Origin: a virus
Lineage: Duplodnaviria; Heunggongvirae; Uroviricota; Caudoviricetes
Strand: one strand, 5' to 3'
DNA length: 36,639 nt
IMG/VR virus record: IMGVR_UViG_2548876956_000006
This document shows positions 1 through 36,639 of this stretch, one piece after another. The stretch's first letter is position 1; every line of letters begins with the position of its first letter. The translations under genes were made by a program, and so were the position numbers. Below the pieces are notes generated by a model, which saw nothing but the letters and a program-made list of their open reading frames with translations, was not told the DNA's origin and did no database searches.

Positions 1-60
1 GCAATCTCCCCTTACTTATCCGGAGGCAATTGCAATATCTCTGTGAACTTACACAGCGCT

Positions 61-201
61 ATGTCGCAAAAATCGCTTACGGCCATCACGTTCTGCGTGA
101 CGGTAATCCTCATCATCTGGATGCTGCACGGTTCGCTGTGTGAAATACGGATGAGCTTCTGGGGAGCGGAGTTTGCGGCGTTCTTACAGTGTAAGCAGTA
201 A
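61..201 (+). CDS. hok: Hok/Gef-family type I toxin (small membrane peptide, 46 aa)
   Basis: Short ORF absent from the ORF track (below length cutoff). Translation MSQKSLTAITFCVTVILIIWMLHGSLCEIRMSFWGAEFAAFLQCKQ has an N-terminal hydrophobic helix followed by the SLCE[IL] and AAFL motifs typical of Hok family members (closest by eye to HokA). Start codon choice is uncertain. Confidence 0.7.
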   Translation: MSQKSLTAITFCVTVILIIWMLHGSLCEIRMSFWGAEFAAFLQCKQ

Positions 202-287
202 GGAAACCGCGACGGGGGAGTAATCCCCCGTCAATCGGTTGCCAAGGCTGGCCGAAGTGGCACCCTATCCCATCGACAGAAACAATA

Positions 288-321
288 AAACCCGCAGCGT
301 AAAAACTGCGGGTTTTATTTT
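288..321 (+). terminator. Rho-independent terminator downstream of hok
   Basis: GC-rich hairpin cccgcag / ctgcggg followed by ttttatttt. Confidence 0.6.
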
Positions 322-392
322 GGAACTCTCACTTAGCTAGGGTACCGTTAACAACACACATAATGCTCGCAAAACAAACCAGTCAAAAGTAA

Positions 393-671
393 TTAATCAG
401 CATTCTCCTGCTTCCATTGCCGGATCATTTCATCAGTAACATCACTCTCATAACATACAACATCATACCCTCCAGTACGGCTATATGCACTGCGTCCACC
501 ACACCTACTACCATTCCTTGCATGATTATAAGGACACGCACAATTGCCTGGATATGATTCAATGGATTCTTTAATTATTTCTTTCTTGATCTGAACATCA
601 GACTTTCCTGTTGCTGCATACCCACTAAAAGATACCAAACAAAAGCAGATTGCCATTAATAAACCACATCG
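393..671 (-). CDS. Small Cys-containing secreted protein, host flank, unknown function
   Basis: AT-rich ORF. The internal Met at about 671 gives a signal-peptide-like N-terminus (MRCGLLMAICFCLVSFSGYAA); the longer upstream extension in the ORF track is probably not translated. Confidence 0.4.
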   Translation of the reverse strand, partial: RCGLLMAICFCLVSFSGYAATGKSDVQIKKEIIKESIESYPGNCACPYNHARNGSRCGGRSAYSRTGGYDVVCYESDVTDEMIRQWKQENAD

Positions 672-1140
672 CATACCGATACACTCTATTACTAACCAAT
701 CATAACCCACATCATAAAATCGAGATGTGGAGTACAACACCTTTAACAAGAAGGTGTCATAACGATAATATGTCGAGCAATTCATCAAAAAAAAGATCTA
801 TATCAAAGAGATAGAGCTCTTATCAGTACTGCAGACATCGGCATTCGAAGCAGCAGAAAAAACAGTAAATCTGACGAATTTGCCTTTTCTCAGGATGTTG
901 TCAGATTAAAAAAGATAGATTAGCGCAGGTACCTTTGGTGGATGGCTGGAGGAAAAATGAAGTCGAGTGGAAAAATCCCAGAAAAATTTTGTTTAACCGA
1001 AGTCTTGGTTCACTATGCGAAATACGGAGGAGCTGCAGGAGAATTCTGCTTCATCCTTAGAGCTTAAACAGCACGTGCACTATCATTGTTGTTTCTGCAT
1101 ATCGCCACACCACCGCCACTCTACCGCCATTGCTCAAAAT

Positions 1141-1171
1141 ACAAATACAAAAAAACCACCCGAAGGTGGTT
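1141..1171 (-). terminator. Rho-independent terminator (native terminator downstream of the tRNA-Leu locus)
   Basis: On the minus strand, hairpin aaccacc-uucg-ggugguu is followed by a U-tract; it lies just 3' of the tRNA fragment. Confidence 0.55.
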
Positions 1172-1215
1172 TCACGACACTGCTTATTGCTTTGATTTTA
1201 TTCTTATCTTTCCCA

Positions 1216-1270
1216 TGGTACCCGGAGCGGGACTTGAACCCGCACAGCGCGAACGCCGAGGGATTTTAAA
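1216..1270 (-). other. Partial tRNA-Leu(UAA) gene, 3' ~53-55 nt only (anticodon loop to CCA): prophage attachment-site core at the int-proximal junction
   Basis: Minus strand reads ...TTTAAAATCCCTCGGCGTTCGCGCTGTGCGGGTTCAAGTCCCGCTCCGGGTACCA, matching the 3' part of enterobacterial tRNA-Leu (leuZ-type) as I recall it. The sequence 5' of this does not form an acceptor stem or D-arm, so it is a fragment and not a gene. Confidence 0.6.
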
Positions 1271-23359: not shown

Positions 23360-25186
23360 ATGAGTACCACAACACGAAAATTTAAAACCATTATCACTGA
23401 TACTGGTGCCAAAAAATTAGCTCAGGCAGCCGCGCCAGATGGTAATCCTGTCCGCCTGACTCACATGGCCGTGGGCGACGGTGGCGGCACGTTGCCCACA
23501 CCAGACAGTAAGCAGACCCGTCTGGTGCATGAGGTGTGGCGACATACTGTTAATCGCGTCATCCTGGACGCAACACATCAGAACCGCATTATTGCGGAGC
23601 TGGTTATTCCTCCTGAAACGGGCGGATTCTGGATCCGGGAAATTGGTGTATTTGATGAGCACGGCGATTTGATCGCGGTGGGCAATACTGCGGAAAGTTA
23701 CAAGCCAGCCGTTGCCGAAGGATCCGGACGTGCACAAACATTTCGCACCATTCTGACCGTATCCAGCACTGCCACCGTGGCGCTTACCGTGGATAACACC
23801 ATGGTTATGGCCACAGTGGATTACGTGAATGACAAACTGAAAGAACATGAACAGTCACGACGTCACCCGGACGCCTCGCTGACCGCAAAAGGCTTTGTTC
23901 AACTCAGTAGCGCCACCAACAGCACGTCTGAAGCACTGGCCGCAACGCCGAAAGCGGTCAAGGCAGCCTATGACCTTGCTAACGGGAAATATACCGCACA
24001 GGACGCCACTACAGCGCGGAAAGAACTTGTCCAGCTCAGTAGCGCCACCAACAGCGATTCAGAAACGCTGGCGGCAACACCAAAGGCGGTAAAGGCAGCC
24101 TATGACCTTGCTAACGGGAAATATACCGCACAGGACGCCACGACGGCACGAAAAGGAATAGTCCAGCTCAGTAGCGTCACTAACAGTGATTCTGAAACGC
24201 TTGCCGCGACTCCGAAAGCGGTGAAAGCCGCTAATGACAATGCAAACGGGCGTGTGCCCTCTGGACGTAAGGTTAATGGCAAATCACTAGCCAATGATGT
24301 CAATGTTACATCGCAGGATATTTTTAACGGCCAGAGTATTGAGATTGGTGCAAATCAGAATCTGGATAATTACAAAACACCGGGGCTGTACCATCAGCCA
24401 TTGAATGCCAATACAAGCGCAGCGCTGAAATACCCGGAGAATTTTGCGGGTACACTGGTTGTGCTTAAAAATGCCGGGATAACACAGATTTACTATGTGT
24501 ATGACACATCCAGAAGCTATACCCGCAGCCAGTACTCAACGGGTGACTGGACACCATGGACGCCACAAGATTCATTTCCGGTAGGTGCGGCGATACCGTG
24601 GCCTTCTGATTCAGTGCCTACAGGCTACACCGTTATGCAGGGGCAGACTTTTGATAAAACAGTCTACCCCCTGCTTGCAGTCGCTTATCCGTCTGGTGTG
24701 ATCCCTGATATGCGTGGCTGGACGATTAAGGGCAAACCCGCCAGTGGTCGGGCCGTATTATCTCAGGAACAGGACGGCATTAAATCACACTCCCACAGTG
24801 CCAGCGCGTCCAGTACGGACTTGGGGACAAAAACCACATCATCATTTGACTACGGCACCAAGACGTCCAGTTCATTTAACCATGGCACTAAAACCACGAA
24901 TAGCGCCGGGGATCATTCACACAATATTCCTGTTGGCAACACTGGCGCTGGTAATGGTGTTTCGGCTGGTTATAACTCAGGGCTTGGCACTGGAAAAACA
25001 AGTAACGCAGGGGGGCACTCTCACACAGTAAATATTGGCGCACACACTCATACGGTAGGAATTGGCGCACACACACACTCCGTTGCGATAGGTTCACACG
25101 GGCATACCATCACCGTTAACGCTACGGGTAACGCAGAAAACACCGTAAAAAACATCGCATTTAACTATATTGTGAGGCTTGCATGA
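23360..25186 (+). CDS. H: Tail fibre protein, P2 gpH-like, with phage-fibre tandem repeats and a Gly/His-rich C-terminal tip
   Basis: 608 aa; three tandem ~44-aa repeats ([40 protein letters not shown]); C-terminal GxHxH repeats ([25 protein letters not shown]). Confidence 0.9.
23894..24245 (+). repeat. Three tandem ~132-bp in-frame repeats inside the tail-fibre gene
   Basis: Near-identical units starting near 23894, 24026 and 24158; coding (phage fibre repeat), not CRISPR. Confidence 0.7.
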
Positions 25187-26085
25187 TTACGCTCATTCTT
25201 TCTGCACCAGTAACAGAAATGGCTGAAGCATTTAAGCAGGTATTTGCAAATGCAGATAGTGTGAATATTGTCGGAAAGCCATTTGAAACAATCAGAGAAT
25301 TTGACTGCATGGTAAGTGCGGCAAATAGTTTCGGCTTGATGGATGGTGGCGTTGATGCCGCCATTACCGCATTCTTCGGTACTCAGTTACAGTTCCGCGT
25401 TCAGAATCATATTCTTCGTGAATATCTCGGCGAACAGCCTGTAGGTTCTGCATTTGTCATTGAAACGGGGCATAATCATCACCCCTGGCTGGTACATGCG
25501 CCAACAATGCGTGTTCCGTTGACAATTGACGGAACAGACGCTGTATATAACGCAACCTGGGCCGCTCTGCTTGCCATCTTTCAACACAATAAAAACGCAA
25601 CGACAGACATGAAAATAAAAACAGTGGTATTCCCTGCAATGGGGGCCGGATGTGGTCAGGTGCCGTTTGAAAGTGTTGCCCGACAGATGAAGCAGGCATG
25701 GGATAACTTTAATAAAAAAACAGAATCAATTAACTGGGAATACGCACAATCTCGCCAGTCGGCAGTATTTGGCACATATGCATACTGTCCGGGTAATTCC
25801 GTTTGCCGTTATGCGGATACTAAATATATTGGATGTGGCGATTATCGGACGTGTTGCTCTCGTTCCGGGCAAGTCTGTATTAACCCTGAACATCAGGCTG
25901 ATGATGTACTGATACAACATCAGGCTAATAACCGTTTTCGCCCTGGTTCGCATATACACCGGATTAATCCAGAAAATCCCGTAGGTAATGTCACCTCTGG
26001 CGCACATAGCCACGGAAGTAGCATCGTTATTGGTACTCCCACCCATACGCTCAATAAACAATATTCTGTCTCTGATATTAAGTAG
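25183..26085 (+). CDS. Macro-domain (ADP-ribose-binding/hydrolase-like) protein with a Cys/His-rich fibre-tip-like C-terminal region
   Basis: ATG overlaps the H stop (ATGA). [32 protein letters not shown]...WLVHAPTM and [19 protein letters not shown] match the three hallmark macro-domain segments (compare E. coli YmdB). The C-terminal ~120 aa carry GSHIH and GAHSHG motifs like the H tip. Confidence 0.75.
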
Positions 26086-26093
26086 AGGTGAAC

Positions 26094-26672
26094 ATGGATT
26101 TCAGAATGAGTGAACAATCACGGACCATAAAAATTTATAACCTGCTGGCCGGAACTAATGAATTTATTGGGGAAGGTGATGCATACATTCCACCTCATAC
26201 AGGTCTGCCTGCAAACAGTACCGATATTGCACCACCAGATATTCCGGCAGGCTTCGTGGCTGTTTTCAACAGTGATGAGGCATCGTGGCATCTCGTTGAA
26301 GACCATCGGGGTAAAACGGTTTATGACGTGGCATCAGGGGACGCGTTATTTATTTCTGAACTCGGTCCGTTACCGGAAAATGTTACCTGGTTGTCGCCGG
26401 ATGGAGAGTGTCAGAAGTGGAACGGCACATCCTGGGTGAAAGATGCAGTAGCAGAAAAACTGTTTCGGGTACGGGAGGCAGAAGAAACAAAAAACAGCCT
26501 GATGCAGGTAGCCAGTGAGCATATTGCGCCACTTCAGGATGCCGTAGATTTGGATATTGCGACGGAGGAAGAGGCATCGTTACTGGCTGCATGGAAGACA
26601 TATAGGGTATTGTTGAATCGTGTTGATACAACAGTAGCAGCGGATGTTGAGTGGCCAGTCGCCCCACAATAA
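26094..26672 (+). CDS. G: Tail fibre assembly protein, P2 gpG/Tfa-like
   Basis: Conserved position after the fibre gene; SD gaggtg is 5 nt before the ATG at 26094. Confidence 0.75.
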
Positions 26673-27945: not shown

Positions 27946-30762
27946 TCAATCTTTATCGTAAAAACTGCCACGTCCGGCACGGTCGCGTCGTTCCAATTCT
28001 GCCCTGACCATTTCACCGACCAGTTTCGCCAGTTCGCGGGGATTCTGCGTAACAACGTTATGCAGATGAACATGAATTTCACCGCCAAATCCGGAGGCAA
28101 CAGGCTCCCGGTTACGGGAAGTTGCAGGAACTGATGCCACTGGCGATCGTATGGCCTCCGCCACCGGGCGGGAGCTGGCCGCAACAACAGGGACCAGCGC
28201 CGGAGACAGCGGAGCCGGAACCACGGGTGTGATATTAATTGCGGGGGCAGGCTTACTGACCTGCGCAATCTTCCGCTCCTGCCACTCCCCACGAACAGCA
28301 AGTGCGCGGGGCAGGTTCTTAAAGACAATATCGCCGAGGCCAATGCGTTTTTTCGTCTCATCAACCAGCTTACCTGTGTTATCAGCAATTTTGCTGAGTC
28401 TGCGTAGCGTCCCGGTATTGCTGTCTGTGAGCGGTTTATTGTCTTTGGGTTTATCACCTCCTGTGCCATTGCCATTTTCCACAGGCTTCGGCGGATTGAT
28501 TTTCGCCAGGTCCCCCTGAAGCAAGGCAACCTTGTCCTGAAGAATGGCCGCACGCTGTGCGTCTTCGATTCTCTTTCTCGCCCTTTCCGCTTCATCCGGA
28601 AGAACACCGAGTTTTTCAAGTATCCACGCCAGCGTATCCAGCAACATTTTTGCAGGCGTCAGAACAAGCTGTAACGCGCCACCAAGAACGTTACCGAATA
28701 TCTCGCCAGCACTGGTACATTTATCCAGCGTTTCCTTGCTGGACTCCATCGGTGACAGCAGCGATTTAAACCAGTTAAACACCTGGCTGATCCCGCTTCC
28801 GATTGCGTCAAAAACAGGACCAAACCGTTCAAAGGTTTCGCGCAACGGGATCAGCCTTTCCATAATCCCGCTGAACACCCCGGCAAAAAATGCCCTGATG
28901 GGATCCCAGTATTTCCAGATAAGAACGGCAGCTCCGGCAAGCGCAGCCACGATAAGACCAACCGGACTGAACAGCGCCCCGATAGCGCCTCCCAGCAAAG
29001 AAACAGAACCCGTCACCATTCCCCACAGCGCAGGCAACACCCTGCTGACATTCATTGACCGGGTAAGAATGTCGAAACCAAGACGCAGGGTGGCCAGCTT
29101 CCCGTAAAGCACCCCAATAACCAGCGACAACGAGCCAATCGTTGCAGTCATTGCCAGCAACGCACCGCCTGCTATCAGTAGCTGGCGCGTCAGTACCGGA
29201 TGGGCCTGCGCCAGCGAGGTGATTTTTTCAAGCACCCGCGTGAGCCACTGCGTGACAGAACGCAGCGGACCGTCAACCAGATCACTGATGCGAATACGAA
29301 GACCTTCCCATGCGCTGTCGAGATTTTTCAGGTCCCCATCAAGATTATCGGCCATTACTTTTGCAACGCGATCGGCCTCTCCCCTTGCCCCCTGCAATTC
29401 TCTGGTCAGTTTTTGCAGCTCTCCTGAACCAGCCGCCGCAATAAGCGTCTGCAAACCAACGAACGCCTCTTCTCCGGCGATGTCCTTGAAGAAGGAAACC
29501 TGGTCCACCTGTCCGTATTTTTGTGTCGCCTTGTAGAGATCAAGCAACACATCCTCCATCGGGCGCATTTTGCCTCTGGCGTCAGCAACTGACACCCCCA
29601 GCTCTTTCAGCGCATCAGCCGCAGCTTTTGGCGGTGATGCAAGGCGGGACAGACTTGCGCGCATGGCTGTACCAGCATCGCTTCCACGAAGACCATTATT
29701 GGCAAGCATCCCGGCCATGGCTGCCGCTTCTTCAAGACTGATACCAAGTTTTGCGGCAACCGGACCGGTATACTTCATGGTTTCGCCCAGCGCGCGTAAA
29801 TCAGTATTGGTCCGGGTGAATGCTGCTGTCAGCGTATCGCCAACACGGTCCATTTGATCGGCTGTCAGGTTGAACTGTGTGAGGATATTGGAGCCTATAT
29901 CAGCCGTCTCGCCGAGTTCGACGCCACCTGCCAGCGCCATATTAAGAACACCGGGCAATGCGGCCTGAATGGCCTGCGGAGTAAAACCAGCCATTGCCAG
30001 AAAGCTCTGCCCACTGGCGGCATCACTCGCAGTAAACTGTGTTTCAGAGCCAAGTTTTAACGCCTGCTCACGCAGCGCCTTAAACTGCGGGCTGTTTTTG
30101 TCGATTCGCGTCAGTGCCTGAACGCGGGACATCTCTTTGCCGAACCCGATCGCAGGCTGCAAAAAACGCCCGGCAGCATAGCCGCCCGCCGCTGCCGCAC
30201 CAATTGCCAGCACACCACCTGTTTTCAGTTTTCCCGCTGTTTCCTGCGCGCGCGAATACCGCTCACGTACCCGCGTTACACGCGCAAGCGCCTGCCGTTC
30301 GCGTTCAAGCTGGTTGTTGTACTGTTCGGTGCGTCTGATGGCCTGCTGGATGGTGTTATCACTGCCTGTCAGGGAAATGCCGTGGCGTTTCAGCTCTCCG
30401 CCAAGCTCCCGCATTTTCTGAATTTCCCGTGTGCGCGATTCATTCAGGCGTTCAAGCCGGGTGCTTAACTGCTGCATCAGCTTTTGTTGTTTTTCGCTGA
30501 GCACTGTACCCGTGCGTTGTAACTGATTAAGGGCGTTAAGCTGGCGTCGTGCTTTCACGATGCCCGCATCCGCTTTACTGACAGCGTCGCGGGCGCGCTC
30601 AAATGAACGCGCCTGACGCTTGAGATTTTTGATCGCCCCCTGCGTTCGCTGGATGGAGTCACCAAACTGCCCCATCAGGCGGCGGGCGTTTTCGGCAGGC
30701 CGGGTCAGCCTGTCAACGGCGCTGAAAGCGACCCGGATATCAAGAGTCTTCATTATCTGCAT
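27946..30762 (-). CDS. T: Tail tape-measure protein, P2 gpT-like
   Basis: 938 aa, helical/Ala-rich with a central hydrophobic segment; conserved position between E' and U. Confidence 0.9.
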   Translation of the reverse strand: MQIMKTLDIRVAFSAVDRLTRPAENARRLMGQFGDSIQRTQGAIKNLKRQARSFERARDAVSKADAGIVKARRQLNALNQLQRTGTVLSEKQQKLMQQLSTRLERLNESRTREIQKMRELGGELKRHGISLTGSDNTIQQAIRRTEQYNNQLERERQALARVTRVRERYSRAQETAGKLKTGGVLAIGAAAAGGYAAGRFLQPAIGFGKEMSRVQALTRIDKNSPQFKALREQALKLGSETQFTASDAASGQSFLAMAGFTPQAIQAALPGVLNMALAGGVELGETADIGSNILTQFNLTADQMDRVGDTLTAAFTRTNTDLRALGETMKYTGPVAAKLGISLEEAAAMAGMLANNGLRGSDAGTAMRASLSRLASPPKAAADALKELGVSVADARGKMRPMEDVLLDLYKATQKYGQVDQVSFFKDIAGEEAFVGLQTLIAAAGSGELQKLTRELQGARGEADRVAKVMADNLDGDLKNLDSAWEGLRIRISDLVDGPLRSVTQWLTRVLEKITSLAQAHPVLTRQLLIAGGALLAMTATIGSLSLVIGVLYGKLATLRLGFDILTRSMNVSRVLPALWGMVTGSVSLLGGAIGALFSPVGLIVAALAGAAVLIWKYWDPIRAFFAGVFSGIMERLIPLRETFERFGPVFDAIGSGISQVFNWFKSLLSPMESSKETLDKCTSAGEIFGNVLGGALQLVLTPAKMLLDTLAWILEKLGVLPDEAERARKRIEDAQRAAILQDKVALLQGDLAKINPPKPVENGNGTGGDKPKDNKPLTDSNTGTLRRLSKIADNTGKLVDETKKRIGLGDIVFKNLPRALAVRGEWQERKIAQVSKPAPAINITPVVPAPLSPALVPVVAASSRPVAEAIRSPVASVPATSRNREPVASGFGGEIHVHLHNVVTQNPRELAKLVGEMVRAELERRDRAGRGSFYDKD

Positions 30763-30976
30763 TCCCGCTGCGAAGTGCCGCCCGCTCGCGCCAGCTAACC
30801 ACTTCGCCGGGCGTCATCATGAAGATTTCGGCGGGCGACCAGTTAAAAATGGCGGCGATATCCGCCACCAGATCTTCGATGTGCTCAAAGCACACCAGGG
30901 TGATTACGCTGCCGTCTCCTGCACGCTCTTCGCGCCAGAGTCTGGCTCGCTCATAAAATTTACAGCCACAGCGCAC
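30740..30976 (-). CDS. E' segment: frameshift-extension part of the tail assembly chaperone, overlapping the T start
   Basis: ORF overlaps the first 22 nt of T, as expected for P2 E'. It is reached only by recoding; see the finding on frames. Confidence 0.45.
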   Translation of the reverse strand: MRCGCKFYERARLWREERAGDGSVITLVCFEHIEDLVADIAAIFNWSPAEIFMMTPGEVVSWRERAALRSGNADNEDS

Positions 30977-31018
30977 AACTGAATAAAATCGCGTGACGAC
31001 ATTTTTTTAATCATCACT

Positions 31019-31279
31019 TCATCCAGTCGTGGCGAGGTCACGCGAGGGCAACAGCGTGAACATGGTATCCGCTTTCAGATTCAGCACATCAGACAGCGAC
31101 AGACCACGCAGGGATCCAGCCTGCTCAATAGCCCCGGTGATCTCCACATACGTGATTTTTTCGCCACCACGCTCAATTGGTCGGGTCAGTTTTACGCCAC
31201 GTTCGACAGCCATATCCTCACCTGCCGTCACATCATCCGCCACGGTGTTATTCCGGGTTTCAGTATCGATGTCTTTCAT
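31019..31279 (-). CDS. E: Tail assembly chaperone, P2 gpE-like (N-terminal part; the C-terminal part appears to continue in another frame)
   Basis: 86-aa ORF after FII; GSLRGLSLSDV...LLP resembles gpE; terminates earlier than expected while an adjacent frame continues protein-like. Confidence 0.65.
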   Translation of the reverse strand: MKDIDTETRNNTVADDVTAGEDMAVERGVKLTRPIERGGEKITYVEITGAIEQAGSLRGLSLSDVLNLKADTMFTLLPSRDLATTG

Positions 31280-31334: not shown

Positions 31335-31847
31335 TCAGCCAAGCCCAAGCGCGGAACGGATACGGTCAGGCACGATGTCCTTGCCGTCCTTCCGATAAAT
31401 GAAGTTCAGCAGGTCAATCTCCCACAACGGGCGATCGTTAACACTCAGCTTGTAGTAGGTGTTTTTAATGGCGTAAGTGTGTGATGTGGCTTCGCCCTGT
31501 TTGGCTTCCCCCATATCAATTTCCGTCACACGTCCGCGCATTTCGACTTCATACAGGTCGCTTTCTGCATCGGTGTAATATTCACCCGCAAAACGCAGCA
31601 GCGTGCCGTCAATCGTGCCACCATACTTAAGGAACAGCTCACGAACTGCGCCCCCCATGACAAAGCTCGCATCAAGCGCGGAGTCGTCCAGACCGAGATC
31701 AATACTTACCGCCCCCATCATGCCACCACCACGGTAGCTGTCGGTTTTGCGCGTCAGTTTGGGCAGAGTGACGGACGTCACCTTACCCACTTCGTTTTCA
31801 CCATCCACAAACAGCGTAAAAAAGCGAAGATGTTTTGGCACAGCCAT
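31335..31847 (-). CDS. FII: Tail tube protein, P2 gpFII-like
   Basis: 170 aa; conserved position after the sheath gene. Confidence 0.85.
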   Translation of the reverse strand: MAVPKHLRFFTLFVDGENEVGKVTSVTLPKLTRKTDSYRGGGMMGAVSIDLGLDDSALDASFVMGGAVRELFLKYGGTIDGTLLRFAGEYYTDAESDLYEVEMRGRVTEIDMGEAKQGEATSHTYAIKNTYYKLSVNDRPLWEIDLLNFIYRKDGKDIVPDRIRSALGLG

Positions 31848-33031
31848 CAGGCACCTCCCAGCACCGCAAATGCGGGTTCAAAGTATTCATCAGTAAACGT
31901 CTGGTAAAGCTCCATGTCTTCCAGTGGCGGAACGGGCGTATATTTGTAGCGAATACGCACACGCCCCTGACGTAAATCCGTGGTGCTGTTATCCACCACG
32001 TCATACCAGCACTCCGCGCCAATCAGTTTCCCGGCAGTCACCAGTGAATCCAGTTTTGCCCTGATGGCACTGATAACATCCTTCACGTTCGCAGGCGTCA
32101 GTGGACTGTCGATGGTTTCAAACTGCGCTTCCGCAATTGAATCAGCCAGCACCTGTGCGGTTCGGGTATACACCTCAAAGATGTAGGCGTTCGTTTCCGG
32201 TGTGCGGTTGCCCCAGAAGCGGAACCCGTTGCGACGAATAATGGTCGTGATTTCTTTGTTGTTGAGGCTGTTGGCATCGCTGTCTTCGGCCTGCAACGAC
32301 CAGAACACATGCCTCGACATCCCCAGCACATTTTTAACCGGAACGTTGGACAGTGATTTGTGCCATCCCTGCTCATGGTCAATGTACGCACGAAGGCCGC
32401 ACGCATAGGCAGGCGCGGGGAACGTTTCGTTTTTGCCACTTTTCGGGTTGTAGGCGATGAAGTCCGGCCATAAGAGCATCACCTCACGTTCGTTGAATTT
32501 CTGGCGGTAGGTAATCGCCTCAGCCATCGTGTTACAGCCGTGACATGAGGCATACACAAACGCGCGCAGTTTACCCGCAATCACGCACAGGGATTTTGTC
32601 ACCGCCTCCGTGTCCAGCTCCGGCGCGGCCAGAATACGCGGACGGTATCCGATGCTTTCATCCTGCTCTGCAACAAGCAGCGCATACATCCCCGTATAGC
32701 TGCCGTCATCCTCAGAACCACCGATAACCAGTTGATCCTGCGTCTTTCCGTCTTCTTCTTTGTGTTCAGCCACGCGAACGACGATCACCTTTGTGCTCAC
32801 CTGGTCTGCGATGGCCTTAAGCGCACGATAAAGCGTCCCCGTTGTCCCGCATTTTCCCAGCACGTCATTAACGCGGGTCAGCAGTGTGGGCTTATTCAGC
32901 GGGAACTGCTCCGCGTCCGCATCATCCGCCGTTGCCACGATACCGATAACGCTGGAATCAACATCGTTAATCGCTGTTACCAGGTCGGTACTTTCCGTGA
33001 CACGGGCACCATGAAAACGAGTTTCACTCAT
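31847..33031 (-). CDS. FI: Contractile tail sheath protein, P2 gpFI-like
   Basis: 394 aa; FPLNKP, LRAF, LMLLWPDF, EQGWHKSLSNV, RRNGFRFWGNRT, YTRTAQV and YKYTPVPPLE closely parallel P2 FI as recalled. Confidence 0.9.
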   Translation of the reverse strand: MSETRFHGARVTESTDLVTAINDVDSSVIGIVATADDADAEQFPLNKPTLLTRVNDVLGKCGTTGTLYRALKAIADQVSTKVIVVRVAEHKEEDGKTQDQLVIGGSEDDGSYTGMYALLVAEQDESIGYRPRILAAPELDTEAVTKSLCVIAGKLRAFVYASCHGCNTMAEAITYRQKFNEREVMLLWPDFIAYNPKSGKNETFPAPAYACGLRAYIDHEQGWHKSLSNVPVKNVLGMSRHVFWSLQAEDSDANSLNNKEITTIIRRNGFRFWGNRTPETNAYIFEVYTRTAQVLADSIAEAQFETIDSPLTPANVKDVISAIRAKLDSLVTAGKLIGAECWYDVVDNSTTDLRQGRVRIRYKYTPVPPLEDMELYQTFTDEYFEPAFAVLGGA

Positions 33032-34498: not shown

Positions 34499-35890
34499 TT
34501 ACGCTTTTTTATCAATATTTTTTTTGAGATCACTCATATGGTATGACCACTTAATCAGACTATCTGGATATTGCTGATCAAAAATAATCCGTGTTTCGTA
34601 ACCATTTCCAATAAAAACACTCTGTCCATCAACACTAGAAACTACCCCCTTCCCATTGATGGAAAGCATACTCATAGGATTAATCTTCGGAGATGGAAAA
34701 TCCAATAACTCATAAATCCCGGGGTATTTTTTATTTGCTCTTTCTACGAAACGACGATGATCGAAACACAGCACAACAATTAGATTGCCATTAATGATAT
34801 CCAGAAGCAATTTATCAGGTAGGTTCAAACTAAAAAATGGACGTGATAAAGCATCTGAAAAGCTATCAAGAATATTAAACACTCTCCCCGATATTCTAGA
34901 TACCTCCATCCATCCATTAAAACCGCAAAAACCCATATTAGAATTAATATATGCCCCAAGGAATAAACAATCATTAATGTTAGTAATCGCCCAAGTTTTA
35001 CCGTTATATATCTCATACCAAAGCTCAATAATCTTATCTGTATAAAAATCGGGACAAAAATCTCTGTCATGAATTGTTACTTGAGACTGAAAAAAGTTAT
35101 CAAATCCCTTACCAGTCTCAATGACATCTATCACATTTTGAGCTCTTTTAAGTTGACGCTTAGCTCTGTCATAGTGTTTCAAGTCATTTTTATCAAGGTC
35201 TTTTCTATAAATCTCATCAAAATGAAGACATTTACTTTGCACTGAGAACATAGCCGCCTTTGAAAACTCTATATTTTTCTTACCACTTTTTATTTCAATT
35301 AAAGTTATGCCTTGCTGAGGTATTAACGCAAGTAAATCACCAGTATGTACAAACGTAGTAATATCAGTGATAACAGCTATAGCCATCGGATCAGCATTGA
35401 TTTCATCTGCTACCACCATTGAATCATGTATATTAAATATTGTCAGATTGTCAGTATTTCTATTTATAGGTAAACGTCTTATAAACGAGTGTTCATTGCG
35501 GAATATCGCCCATACAATTGAATCAATACACCTACGTAAAATCCTAATTTCTAGTCTAGTCCTTTCAATATTGCGTATACACTTCTTCTTTGTTTCATAG
35601 TCCTTTTTTGAATGGGCACAATTCTTTTCTAACTCCAGATCCTTGATTTGAGAAAGCCTGATAATGAGTTCATCAGCTATGATCCTTTGCGCCCGCTTCC
35701 ATCCACTTAACAGGTGTTTGAAGTTTTCGATGGAATCAAGCTCCCTTTGCTGAGCTCCCACATTTTCCCCTTGCCGTATCAGCATCATTAACGTCTTGAT
35801 GAGTTCATTGAACTCAGAAGGAAGATGTTCCCATATATTTATGAACGGCCTATACTTTGCCCGCATTTTATCATTGTTATTTTTTGCCAT
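34499..35890 (-). CDS. Uncharacterised ~465-aa protein, AT-rich cargo between D and ogr; possible nuclease-like (PD-(D/E)xK-type) core
   Basis: Long ORF with ~33% GC on the strand opposite to D and ogr; no family recognised; segment TGDLLALIPQQGITLIEIKSGKK fits a D...E-x-K pattern. Start ambiguous (GTG at 35914 or ATG at 35890). Confidence 0.55.
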   Translation of the reverse strand: MAKNNNDKMRAKYRPFINIWEHLPSEFNELIKTLMMLIRQGENVGAQQRELDSIENFKHLLSGWKRAQRIIADELIIRLSQIKDLELEKNCAHSKKDYETKKKCIRNIERTRLEIRILRRCIDSIVWAIFRNEHSFIRRLPINRNTDNLTIFNIHDSMVVADEINADPMAIAVITDITTFVHTGDLLALIPQQGITLIEIKSGKKNIEFSKAAMFSVQSKCLHFDEIYRKDLDKNDLKHYDRAKRQLKRAQNVIDVIETGKGFDNFFQSQVTIHDRDFCPDFYTDKIIELWYEIYNGKTWAITNINDCLFLGAYINSNMGFCGFNGWMEVSRISGRVFNILDSFSDALSRPFFSLNLPDKLLLDIINGNLIVVLCFDHRRFVERANKKYPGIYELLDFPSPKINPMSMLSINGKGVVSSVDGQSVFIGNGYETRIIFDQQYPDSLIKWSYHMSDLKKNIDKKA

Positions 35891-36394: not shown

Positions 36395-36639
36395 CGAGCA
36401 GAATTGCCGAAGCAACAAAAAAACGATAGATTACGCGCGGGTGCCTTTCGGCTGATGGTCGGAGGGTATGCCCGAAGGCCAGATGTGGAAAGGCCCCGGA
36501 AAACATCTCTGTTTAACCGAGGCCCTAACCATCTAACCTTAGCAAGTGATAGGTTAGCGCCTCCCCTAAAAAGGAGCAAGCGCTTGTATGGGTCCACCAC
36601 ATATTGCAATTTTTATTCTCTTTTAAAATATATTCCACG

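Follow-up and report, generated by a model that had tools for sequence, protein, structure and literature searches.

The E/E′ locus and its prophage

We analysed a stretch of 36,639 nucleotides of tailed-phage DNA (IMG/VR record IMGVR_UViG_2548876956_000006), the whole of which is termed the window. On the minus strand the tail genes run in the order sheath, tube, E, E′ and tape measure T, with the tube and tape measure genes flanking the E/E′ pair as in phages of the P2 type. The positions of these genes and of the smaller features discussed below are collected in Table 1.

Table 1. Genes, reading frames and sequence features at the E/E′ locus of the window
Feature	Position	Strand	Remarks
Sheath gene	31847–33031	minus	intact; upstream of E
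Tube gene	31335–31847	minus	intact; upstream of E
Gene E (tail assembly chaperone, gpE homologue)	30904–31279	minus	124 codons in relatives; interrupted here by an extra C
E N-terminal ORF	31019–31279	minus	86 codons; from the ORF list
CCC run with one-base insertion	31046–31048	minus	codon 78 (Pro) of E, within the LLPRVT motif
Premature TGA	31019–31021	minus	follows 8 missense codons (SRDLATTG); ends the 86-aa product
A7 run with overlapping TAA	31002–31009	minus	A7 at 31002–31008, TAA at 31007–31009; E′ (−1) frame opens here; not the site of the break
Continuation ORF	ends 30904	minus	45 codons; protein-like; from the ORF list
Candidate −1 slippery heptamer A_AAT_TTT	30955–30961	minus	in phase; codons Asn106-Phe107 of intact E
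gpE stop (TAA)	30904–30906	minus	zero frame
E′ ORF	30740–30976	minus	78 codons; overlaps the start of T
E′ extension	30740–30955	minus	−1 frame; 72 codons including the re-read T at 30955
Tape measure gene T	27946–30762	minus	intact; PF10145; start at 30762 or 30753

The initial annotation listed an N-terminal E ORF ending at a TGA, a protein-like continuation and an E′ ORF running over the start of T, together with a run of seven A, and all of these are present as described. It also assigned the ORFs to three reading frames, but this was an arithmetic error. The starts of the N-terminal E ORF (31279) and of the E′ ORF (30976) are both 1 mod 3, with 0 mod 3 for the continuation and T, and therefore only two frames are used. 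The N-terminal E and E′ ORFs share a frame and are separated by the TGA of the former and the TAA at the A7 run. A recoding event spanning three frames is ruled out by this frame arithmetic. The E′ frame is −1 relative to the continuation, the two overlap for 100 nt before the E stop, and E′ ends 14–23 nt within T.

The DNA of the locus is 99.4–99.5% identical to that of Citrobacter phage Shae_phiSM and the prophage of E. coli H1, and 85% identical to that of phage P88 (genus Xuanwuvirus, Peduoviridae). The window is evidently a contig of a P88-like (Xuanwuvirus, Peduoviridae) prophage of the P2 family from E. coli, a prophage type that we found in 1370 of 5426 complete E. coli genomes, i.e. 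around a quarter. Comparison with the Shae_phiSM proteins using tblastn indicated that about 25 other conserved phage genes are intact in the window, and revealed no further conserved gene that is broken. We found nothing concerning the E/E′ locus in the literature on Xuanwuvirus or on the source assembly.

Both parts of the coding region have relatives among tail chaperones. The E part matches phrog_103 (1e-36), and scores 20.6 bits against PF10109, which is under the cut-off of 25. For the E′ part we used a modelled 179-aa fusion of E and E′, which matches PF06528 (Phage_P2_GpE) with 45 bits, the cut-off being 23, and phrog_1756 (1.8e-38). By BLASTP the modelled fusion is 35% identical to P2 gpE+E′ (E = 4e-28, 153 columns), the alignment running through the junction and placing the slip-site Phe of the model on the Phe of the annotated P2 site (NC_001895).

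Several other features of the window were noted. There is an Rfam IS009 match at 26437–26635 on the plus strand (187.9 bits, gathering score 117), in the region of tail-fibre assembly and the invertible segment. Between the tail-fibre and tail-fibre-assembly genes is a 300-aa ORF (25183–26085, plus strand) that encodes a Macro domain (PF01661, 3.8e-18) and has no match in PADLOC. A 463-aa ORF (34499–35890, minus strand) between gene D and ogr has no match in Pfam or PADLOC; it may be cargo (a moron) at a variable locus of the P2 type.

A single-base insertion in gene E

Alignment of the window with related loci (alignment A1) reveals where the E frame is broken. The window reads GTTGCC[C]TCG, with one C more than the CC of its relatives, i.e. 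GTTGCCCTCG compared to GTTGCCTCG, and this is the single difference in length. The same is evident in the database matches, where 651 bases of query correspond to at most 650 bases of subject in all 13 of the phage matches and all 30 of the E. coli matches listed, out of 1372 records. The insertion is absent from each of the 74 related loci that cover the site, and across 27.4–34.3 kb no other indel sets the window apart from all of the 50–74 related loci compared. At the position of codon 78 the matched relatives have CC in 186 of 187 cases and TC in the other.

The insertion lies approximately 38 nt 5′ of the A7 run. The initial annotation had placed the break at 31010–31025, beside that run. 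This position is excluded by the alignment, since the run is seven nucleotides long in 191 relatives and is intact in the window. The break falls instead within LLPRVTSP, which is aligned with VLPRMTAP of P2 gpE. Within this region homologues down to 44% identity all have L76, R79, V80, T81 and P83 (alignment A2).

Because the extra C shifts the frame, translation is expected to reach the premature TGA after eight missense codons, and there is no uninterrupted zero-frame path from the start of E to the slip site in the window. Removal of one C in silico generates a 124-aa E that is 99% identical to the representative of its cluster (P0001), and the relatives whose records we inspected have E annotated as one continuous CDS of 375 nt. 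Alignment of the frames with gpE and gpE+E′ of P2-like phages, as had been proposed, gave a continuous E in the relatives. We conclude that E of the window is evidently a mutant (pseudogene) allele of a member of the P2-type chaperone family.

The insertion is inherited

An extra base in a draft contig might be an artefact of sequencing or assembly, the real gene being intact. This explanation fitted our database scans at first. The wild-type allele is present in 594 RefSeq complete E. coli genomes with this prophage type, and the insertion allele in none of the 594. The wild-type 27-mer was found in 66 viral contigs and 40 metagenome contigs. Exact-pattern scanning gave no match to the insertion allele in genome_contigs or metagenome_contigs, nor was the allele present in phage records. 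The one match in viral_contigs was the source of the window itself, 100% identical over 12.5 kb.

The artefact was overturned by an exact-protein look-up, which found independent carriers. In the assembly index 46 blocks list the 86-aa product in exactly this form. Besides the source of the window, which the look-up showed to be NCBI contig AIBU01000047.1 of assembly GCA_000446945.2, it occurs in the NCBI assemblies GCA_900449855.1 (protein STK29543.1) and GCA_038404625.1, in several independently assembled SRA runs (at least six accessions among the places listed) and in three ENA metagenome assemblies. At the DNA level the same C is present in all 15 of the carrier loci returned, some of which come from the same contig, so that they represent about nine sources besides the window. 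The carriers always have one haplotype, 99.6–100% identical to the window over the 6.35-kb region from D to T, whereas the nearest locus with the wild-type allele in the sample is 98.3% identical. Moreover runs of three C are not prone to error, and there is no other private indel in a well-covered 7 kb. An artefact is therefore very improbable. Given that the same allele is found on the same haplotype in independent assemblies, it must be an inherited mutation rather than a read error, and the comparison identifies the extra C as a real, inherited marker of one prophage haplotype. Of the explanations offered in the initial annotation, a real frameshift mutation is thus borne out, reproduced in independent assemblies and read sets, while a sequencing error next to a homopolymer is disfavoured both by the independent recurrence of the allele and by the distance of the break from the A7 run.

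The carriers also have an insertion sequence in common. The IS adjoins ogr in two of the carrier loci (L203 and L204), the window and the short carrier contigs end at that point, and for every carrier this IS is either observed or implied. Besides the IS insertion the carriers exhibit no further decay of E, E′ or other tail genes, and therefore the C insertion is either recent or tolerated.

In GCA_900449855.1 (L203; 1154–5036 and 15196–18056) further copies of IS3-family elements surround ogr and the tail-fibre gene is in fragments, which fits a decaying, vertically inherited prophage.

The contig as a whole resembles a circular permutation of the integrated prophage (window 1–1270 and 36525–36639; L204 2353–4755). 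In L204 the order is pgsA-glyW-cysT-leuZ, window 1270 to 1, the IS (with a 365-aa rve transposase) and then window 36639 downward. In the window, 1216–1270 is identical to the final 55 nt of leuZ (its 3′ end) and adjoins int (1377–2378). Together these indicate that the contig joins both ends of the prophage across att, with the two termini of the contig itself falling within one IS. The permutation could have arisen from an excised circle or a tandem lysogen, or from the path that an assembler took via the att repeat.

A candidate −1 slip site

The continuation frame contains the heptamer AAATTTT, which the initial annotation had correctly placed on the minus strand in position to shift ribosomes into E′. 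It is in X_XXY_YYZ phase with the continuation frame (phase 2), and E′ is −1 to that frame. Taking the rate from the long ORFs of the window, about 0.08 canonical heptamers are expected in phase by chance in the 100-nt E/E′ overlap. The slip region is GTAAATTTTATG in all 183 of the close relatives.

In P2 and a number of homologues the site differs. T_TTT_TTG is found in phase at the same codon pair in P88, in two Salmonella homologues and in the 64%-identical E. coli homologue P0051. A_AAT_TTT lies one codon 5′ of the T_TTT_TTG position of P88, P0051, P0066, P0061 and P2. In the clade of the window TTT TTG is replaced by TTT ATG, a Leu to Met change present in 183 of 183 loci (window 30955–30952, compared with L003 1879–1888), and the heptamer specific to P2 is thereby absent. 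P88 has both heptamers (GTA AAT TTT TTG). As a consequence of the TTG to ATG change the usable heptamer in the clade would be A_AAT_TTT, one codon upstream, and the −1 slip site of the clade appears to have moved by one codon, from U_UUU_UUG to A_AAU_UUU. A_AAT_TTT is well placed, and is plausible as a −1 heptamer; from its sequence we infer both slipping on A_AAU_UUU and its efficiency. Heptamers of the form H_HH.U_UU.Y, including A_AA.U_UU.U, are among the most efficient in E. coli, and U_UU.U is third among the tetramers (Sharma et al., PMC4066793).

We searched for a downstream RNA structure that might stimulate slipping. Single-sequence folds were no better than those of shuffled sequences (z = −1.3 and −0.7), and RNAalifold applied to seven diverse homologues gave no pairs. 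The alignment of related loci consisted only of relatives of 98–100% identity, and the diverse homologues were taken from contigs that encode homologous proteins. Rfam has no match at the E/E′ locus. In its account of P2-like phages PMC3091744 reports no downstream structure, matching the result for the window.

Expression of E′ by a frameshift is not marked in the RefSeq and GenBank records that we inspected (E. coli H1, Shae_phiSM and P88), in which E′ is a separate small CDS of the ‘GpE family’ or a ‘tail fiber’ protein, or is unannotated. Yet E′ has no convincing start of its own. The GTG used by RefSeq lies after the E stop, and lacks a well-spaced Shine-Dalgarno sequence. The annotated E′ is a 51-aa ‘GpE family phage tail protein’ or ‘tail fiber protein’ (L001 1955–2110, L003 1945–2100) that begins after the E stop.

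A number of public assemblies contain variants at the A7 run. In L213 (870–880; Logan ERR13669365) and L214 gene E has A8 rather than A7, and the proteins P0020, P0021 and P0057 are of this kind. The additional A puts E′ in frame with E, so that the two form a single protein of 179 aa joined at IKK|NVVTRFYSVVRCGCKFYER. P0018, P0048 and P0059 are further E-E′ fusions at or near the T run. The A8 and T-run fusions could be either real variants or homopolymer errors.

The −1 slip that generates E+E′ might alternatively occur at the A7 run itself (ATT_AAA_AAA_ATG), by slippage of either the ribosome or RNA polymerase. The E′ frame opens exactly at the run, which is conserved in P88 and 191 relatives, and the A8 variants in public assemblies encode the full-length fusion by this route. 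Seven A is however short for efficient RNA polymerase slippage, and the phase of the run (T_AAA_AAA) does not suit a tandem slip. Distant homologues (P0051, P0066, P0061, P0079 and P2) lack the A run but have the T run, and in P0051 the open stretch of the −1 frame is just 52 nt long and starts exactly at the T run. Slipping of tRNA-Lys on A_AA.A is recognised, though weak, being the last of six active tetramers (PMC4066793). We therefore regard slipping at the A7 run as unlikely, and A_AAT_TTT as the candidate site.

Predicted consequences for tail assembly

We consider it highly probable, from the comparisons above, that this is a P88-like prophage whose E/E+E′ chaperone pair, made by −1 slipping, has been broken by a real, inherited insertion of a single C, and that the prophage is most likely tail-defective. 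In the intact form the ribosomes would read the 124 codons of E, and the majority would stop at the TAA. A minority would slip back by one base on A_AAU_UUU and continue in the −1 frame, generating a 179-aa gpE+E′ that ends just inside T. By analogy with gpE and gpE+E′ of P2 and with gpG and gpGT of lambda, the two products would chaperone the tape measure and recruit tube subunits, the product of T being their presumed client. In the window the extra C at codon 78 would send the ribosomes into the frame used by E′, too early. They would meet the premature TGA after eight wrong residues and release the 86-aa fragment. Neither gpE nor gpE+E′ would be made, since the slip site would never be read in the correct frame.

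Both gpE and gpE+E′ of P2 are annotated as essential (NC_001895), and the ratio of G to GT is critical in lambda (PMC5009743). If, as the family suggests, both proteins are needed, the prophage should fail to build tails, and we expect that a prophage carrying the insertion is most likely tail-defective (cryptic). Low-level +1 slipping on CCC_U, or reinitiation at a GTG or ATG after the premature stop, could leave some function.

The first of these might be more than a residual activity. In a scheme of double recoding, UUG_CCC_UCG would slip by +1 (CCC to CCU) and restore native gpE at a few percent, after which a −1 slip would generate gpE+E′. A +1 slip on CCC_U would indeed give the native LLPRVT, and E, E′ and the other tail genes downstream are still intact in the carriers. 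CCC_N is a documented shift-prone P-site codon, as in ACA_CCC_UCC of PSA cps and CCC_UGA of pheL (PMC5009743). An insertion mutant of rpoB is suppressed to 5% on CCC_AGG, and non-programmed suppression of 1–10% has been measured in E. coli (PMC10861913). Yet no stimulatory element is evident at the site in the window, and UCG is not established as a hungry codon. Unlike a programmed +1 site of the CCC_N type, which would be conserved among homologues, the CCC is confined to the mutant haplotype, with UCG as its next codon, and the relatives have CC(T). The allele is limited to one haplotype, and the sole carrier with host flank (L204) has the leuZ site with the same IS. Nothing suggests that it spreads horizontally in a live phage, though with one host flank this evidence is thin, and the divergence is too small for selection to be detected. 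Furthermore, the ratio of the chaperone matters, and a few percent of it would probably be too little for normal assembly. Rescue by a +1 slip thus seems improbable. If true, it would be a natural ‘savior’ frameshift, with opposite slips (+1, then −1) on one mRNA, and the lineage would be partly tail-competent.

Alternatively the chaperone might function as two pieces. Translation would stop at the premature TGA and reinitiate at an in-frame GTG or ATG (EVMIKKM...), and the C-terminal fragment, with or without E′, would work together with the 86-aa N-terminal fragment. A GTG and an ATG in the native E frame do lie within 10 nt of the premature stop. However, these codons lack a Shine-Dalgarno sequence, no split gpE is known to function, and the break is inside the most conserved motif of the family. 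We regard a split chaperone as extremely improbable, and return to loss of both chaperone proteins as the preferred reading.

It follows that E and E′ in this prophage family should be annotated as one −1 frameshifted pair, with a slip heptamer in this clade that differs from the textbook site of P2. The split E is a real pseudogenising mutation that provides a useful marker of the lineage and a predictor of failure to build tails; it should neither be ‘corrected’ as an error nor taken as exotic recoding. The locus would thus combine known biology with an ordinary inactivating indel, and raises no new mechanistic question.

Comparison with known recoding systems

The locus can be compared first with that of the Xuanwuvirus relatives (P88, Shae_phiSM, P884B11 and the prophage of E. 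coli H1). These are 85–99.5% identical in DNA over the locus and have the same E/E′ layout, but differ from the window in having an intact E of 121–124 codons.

In P2 the arrangement is similar. The order of sheath, tube, E, E′ and T is the same, and E′, which is likewise −1 to E, runs over the 3′ end of E and stops within T. In both systems E′ carries PF06528, and no downstream RNA structure was found. Frameshifting in P2 reportedly occurs at roughly 10%. PMC3091744, citing Christie et al. 2002, describes P2 gpE and gpE+E′ as arising by a programmed −1 frameshift within the FETUD tail operon. According to the description of the P2 site in PMC3091744 and the annotation of NC_001895, P2 slips on TTTTTTG and the products are 91 and 142 aa. 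By contrast the clade of the window has TTT ATG with A_AAT_TTT as its sole in-phase heptamer, one codon upstream, and its proteins are 124 and 179 aa in length. The zero-frame gene of the window is in addition broken by the C insertion. The initial annotation had raised the possibility of recoding more complex than that of P2, but without the extra C there is a standard two-frame E/E+E′ that is aligned end to end with P2 gpE+E′. On this comparison the E/E′ locus is a member of the P2 E/E+E′ family, works in the same way, and has a different slippery heptamer.

The gpG and gpGT proteins of lambda are also made as two products in a fixed ratio by a −1 slip, and are encoded between the tube and tape measure genes. 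The pair of the window has no sequence similarity to them, and lambda has a siphovirus tail. The lambda heptamer is G_GGA_AAG, which differs from that in the window. The function of the lambda pair as chaperones is described in the treatment of lambda in PMC5009743 (Levin 1993; Xu 2004, 2013, 2014).

Finally, the insertion itself can be compared to CCC_AGG of E. coli rpoB and to ACA_CCC_UCC in cps of the Listeria phage PSA. It creates a CCC codon in the P site, followed by U, and a +1 slip there would recover the native protein. Unlike in those cases, no rare-codon or structural stimulator is evident in the window.
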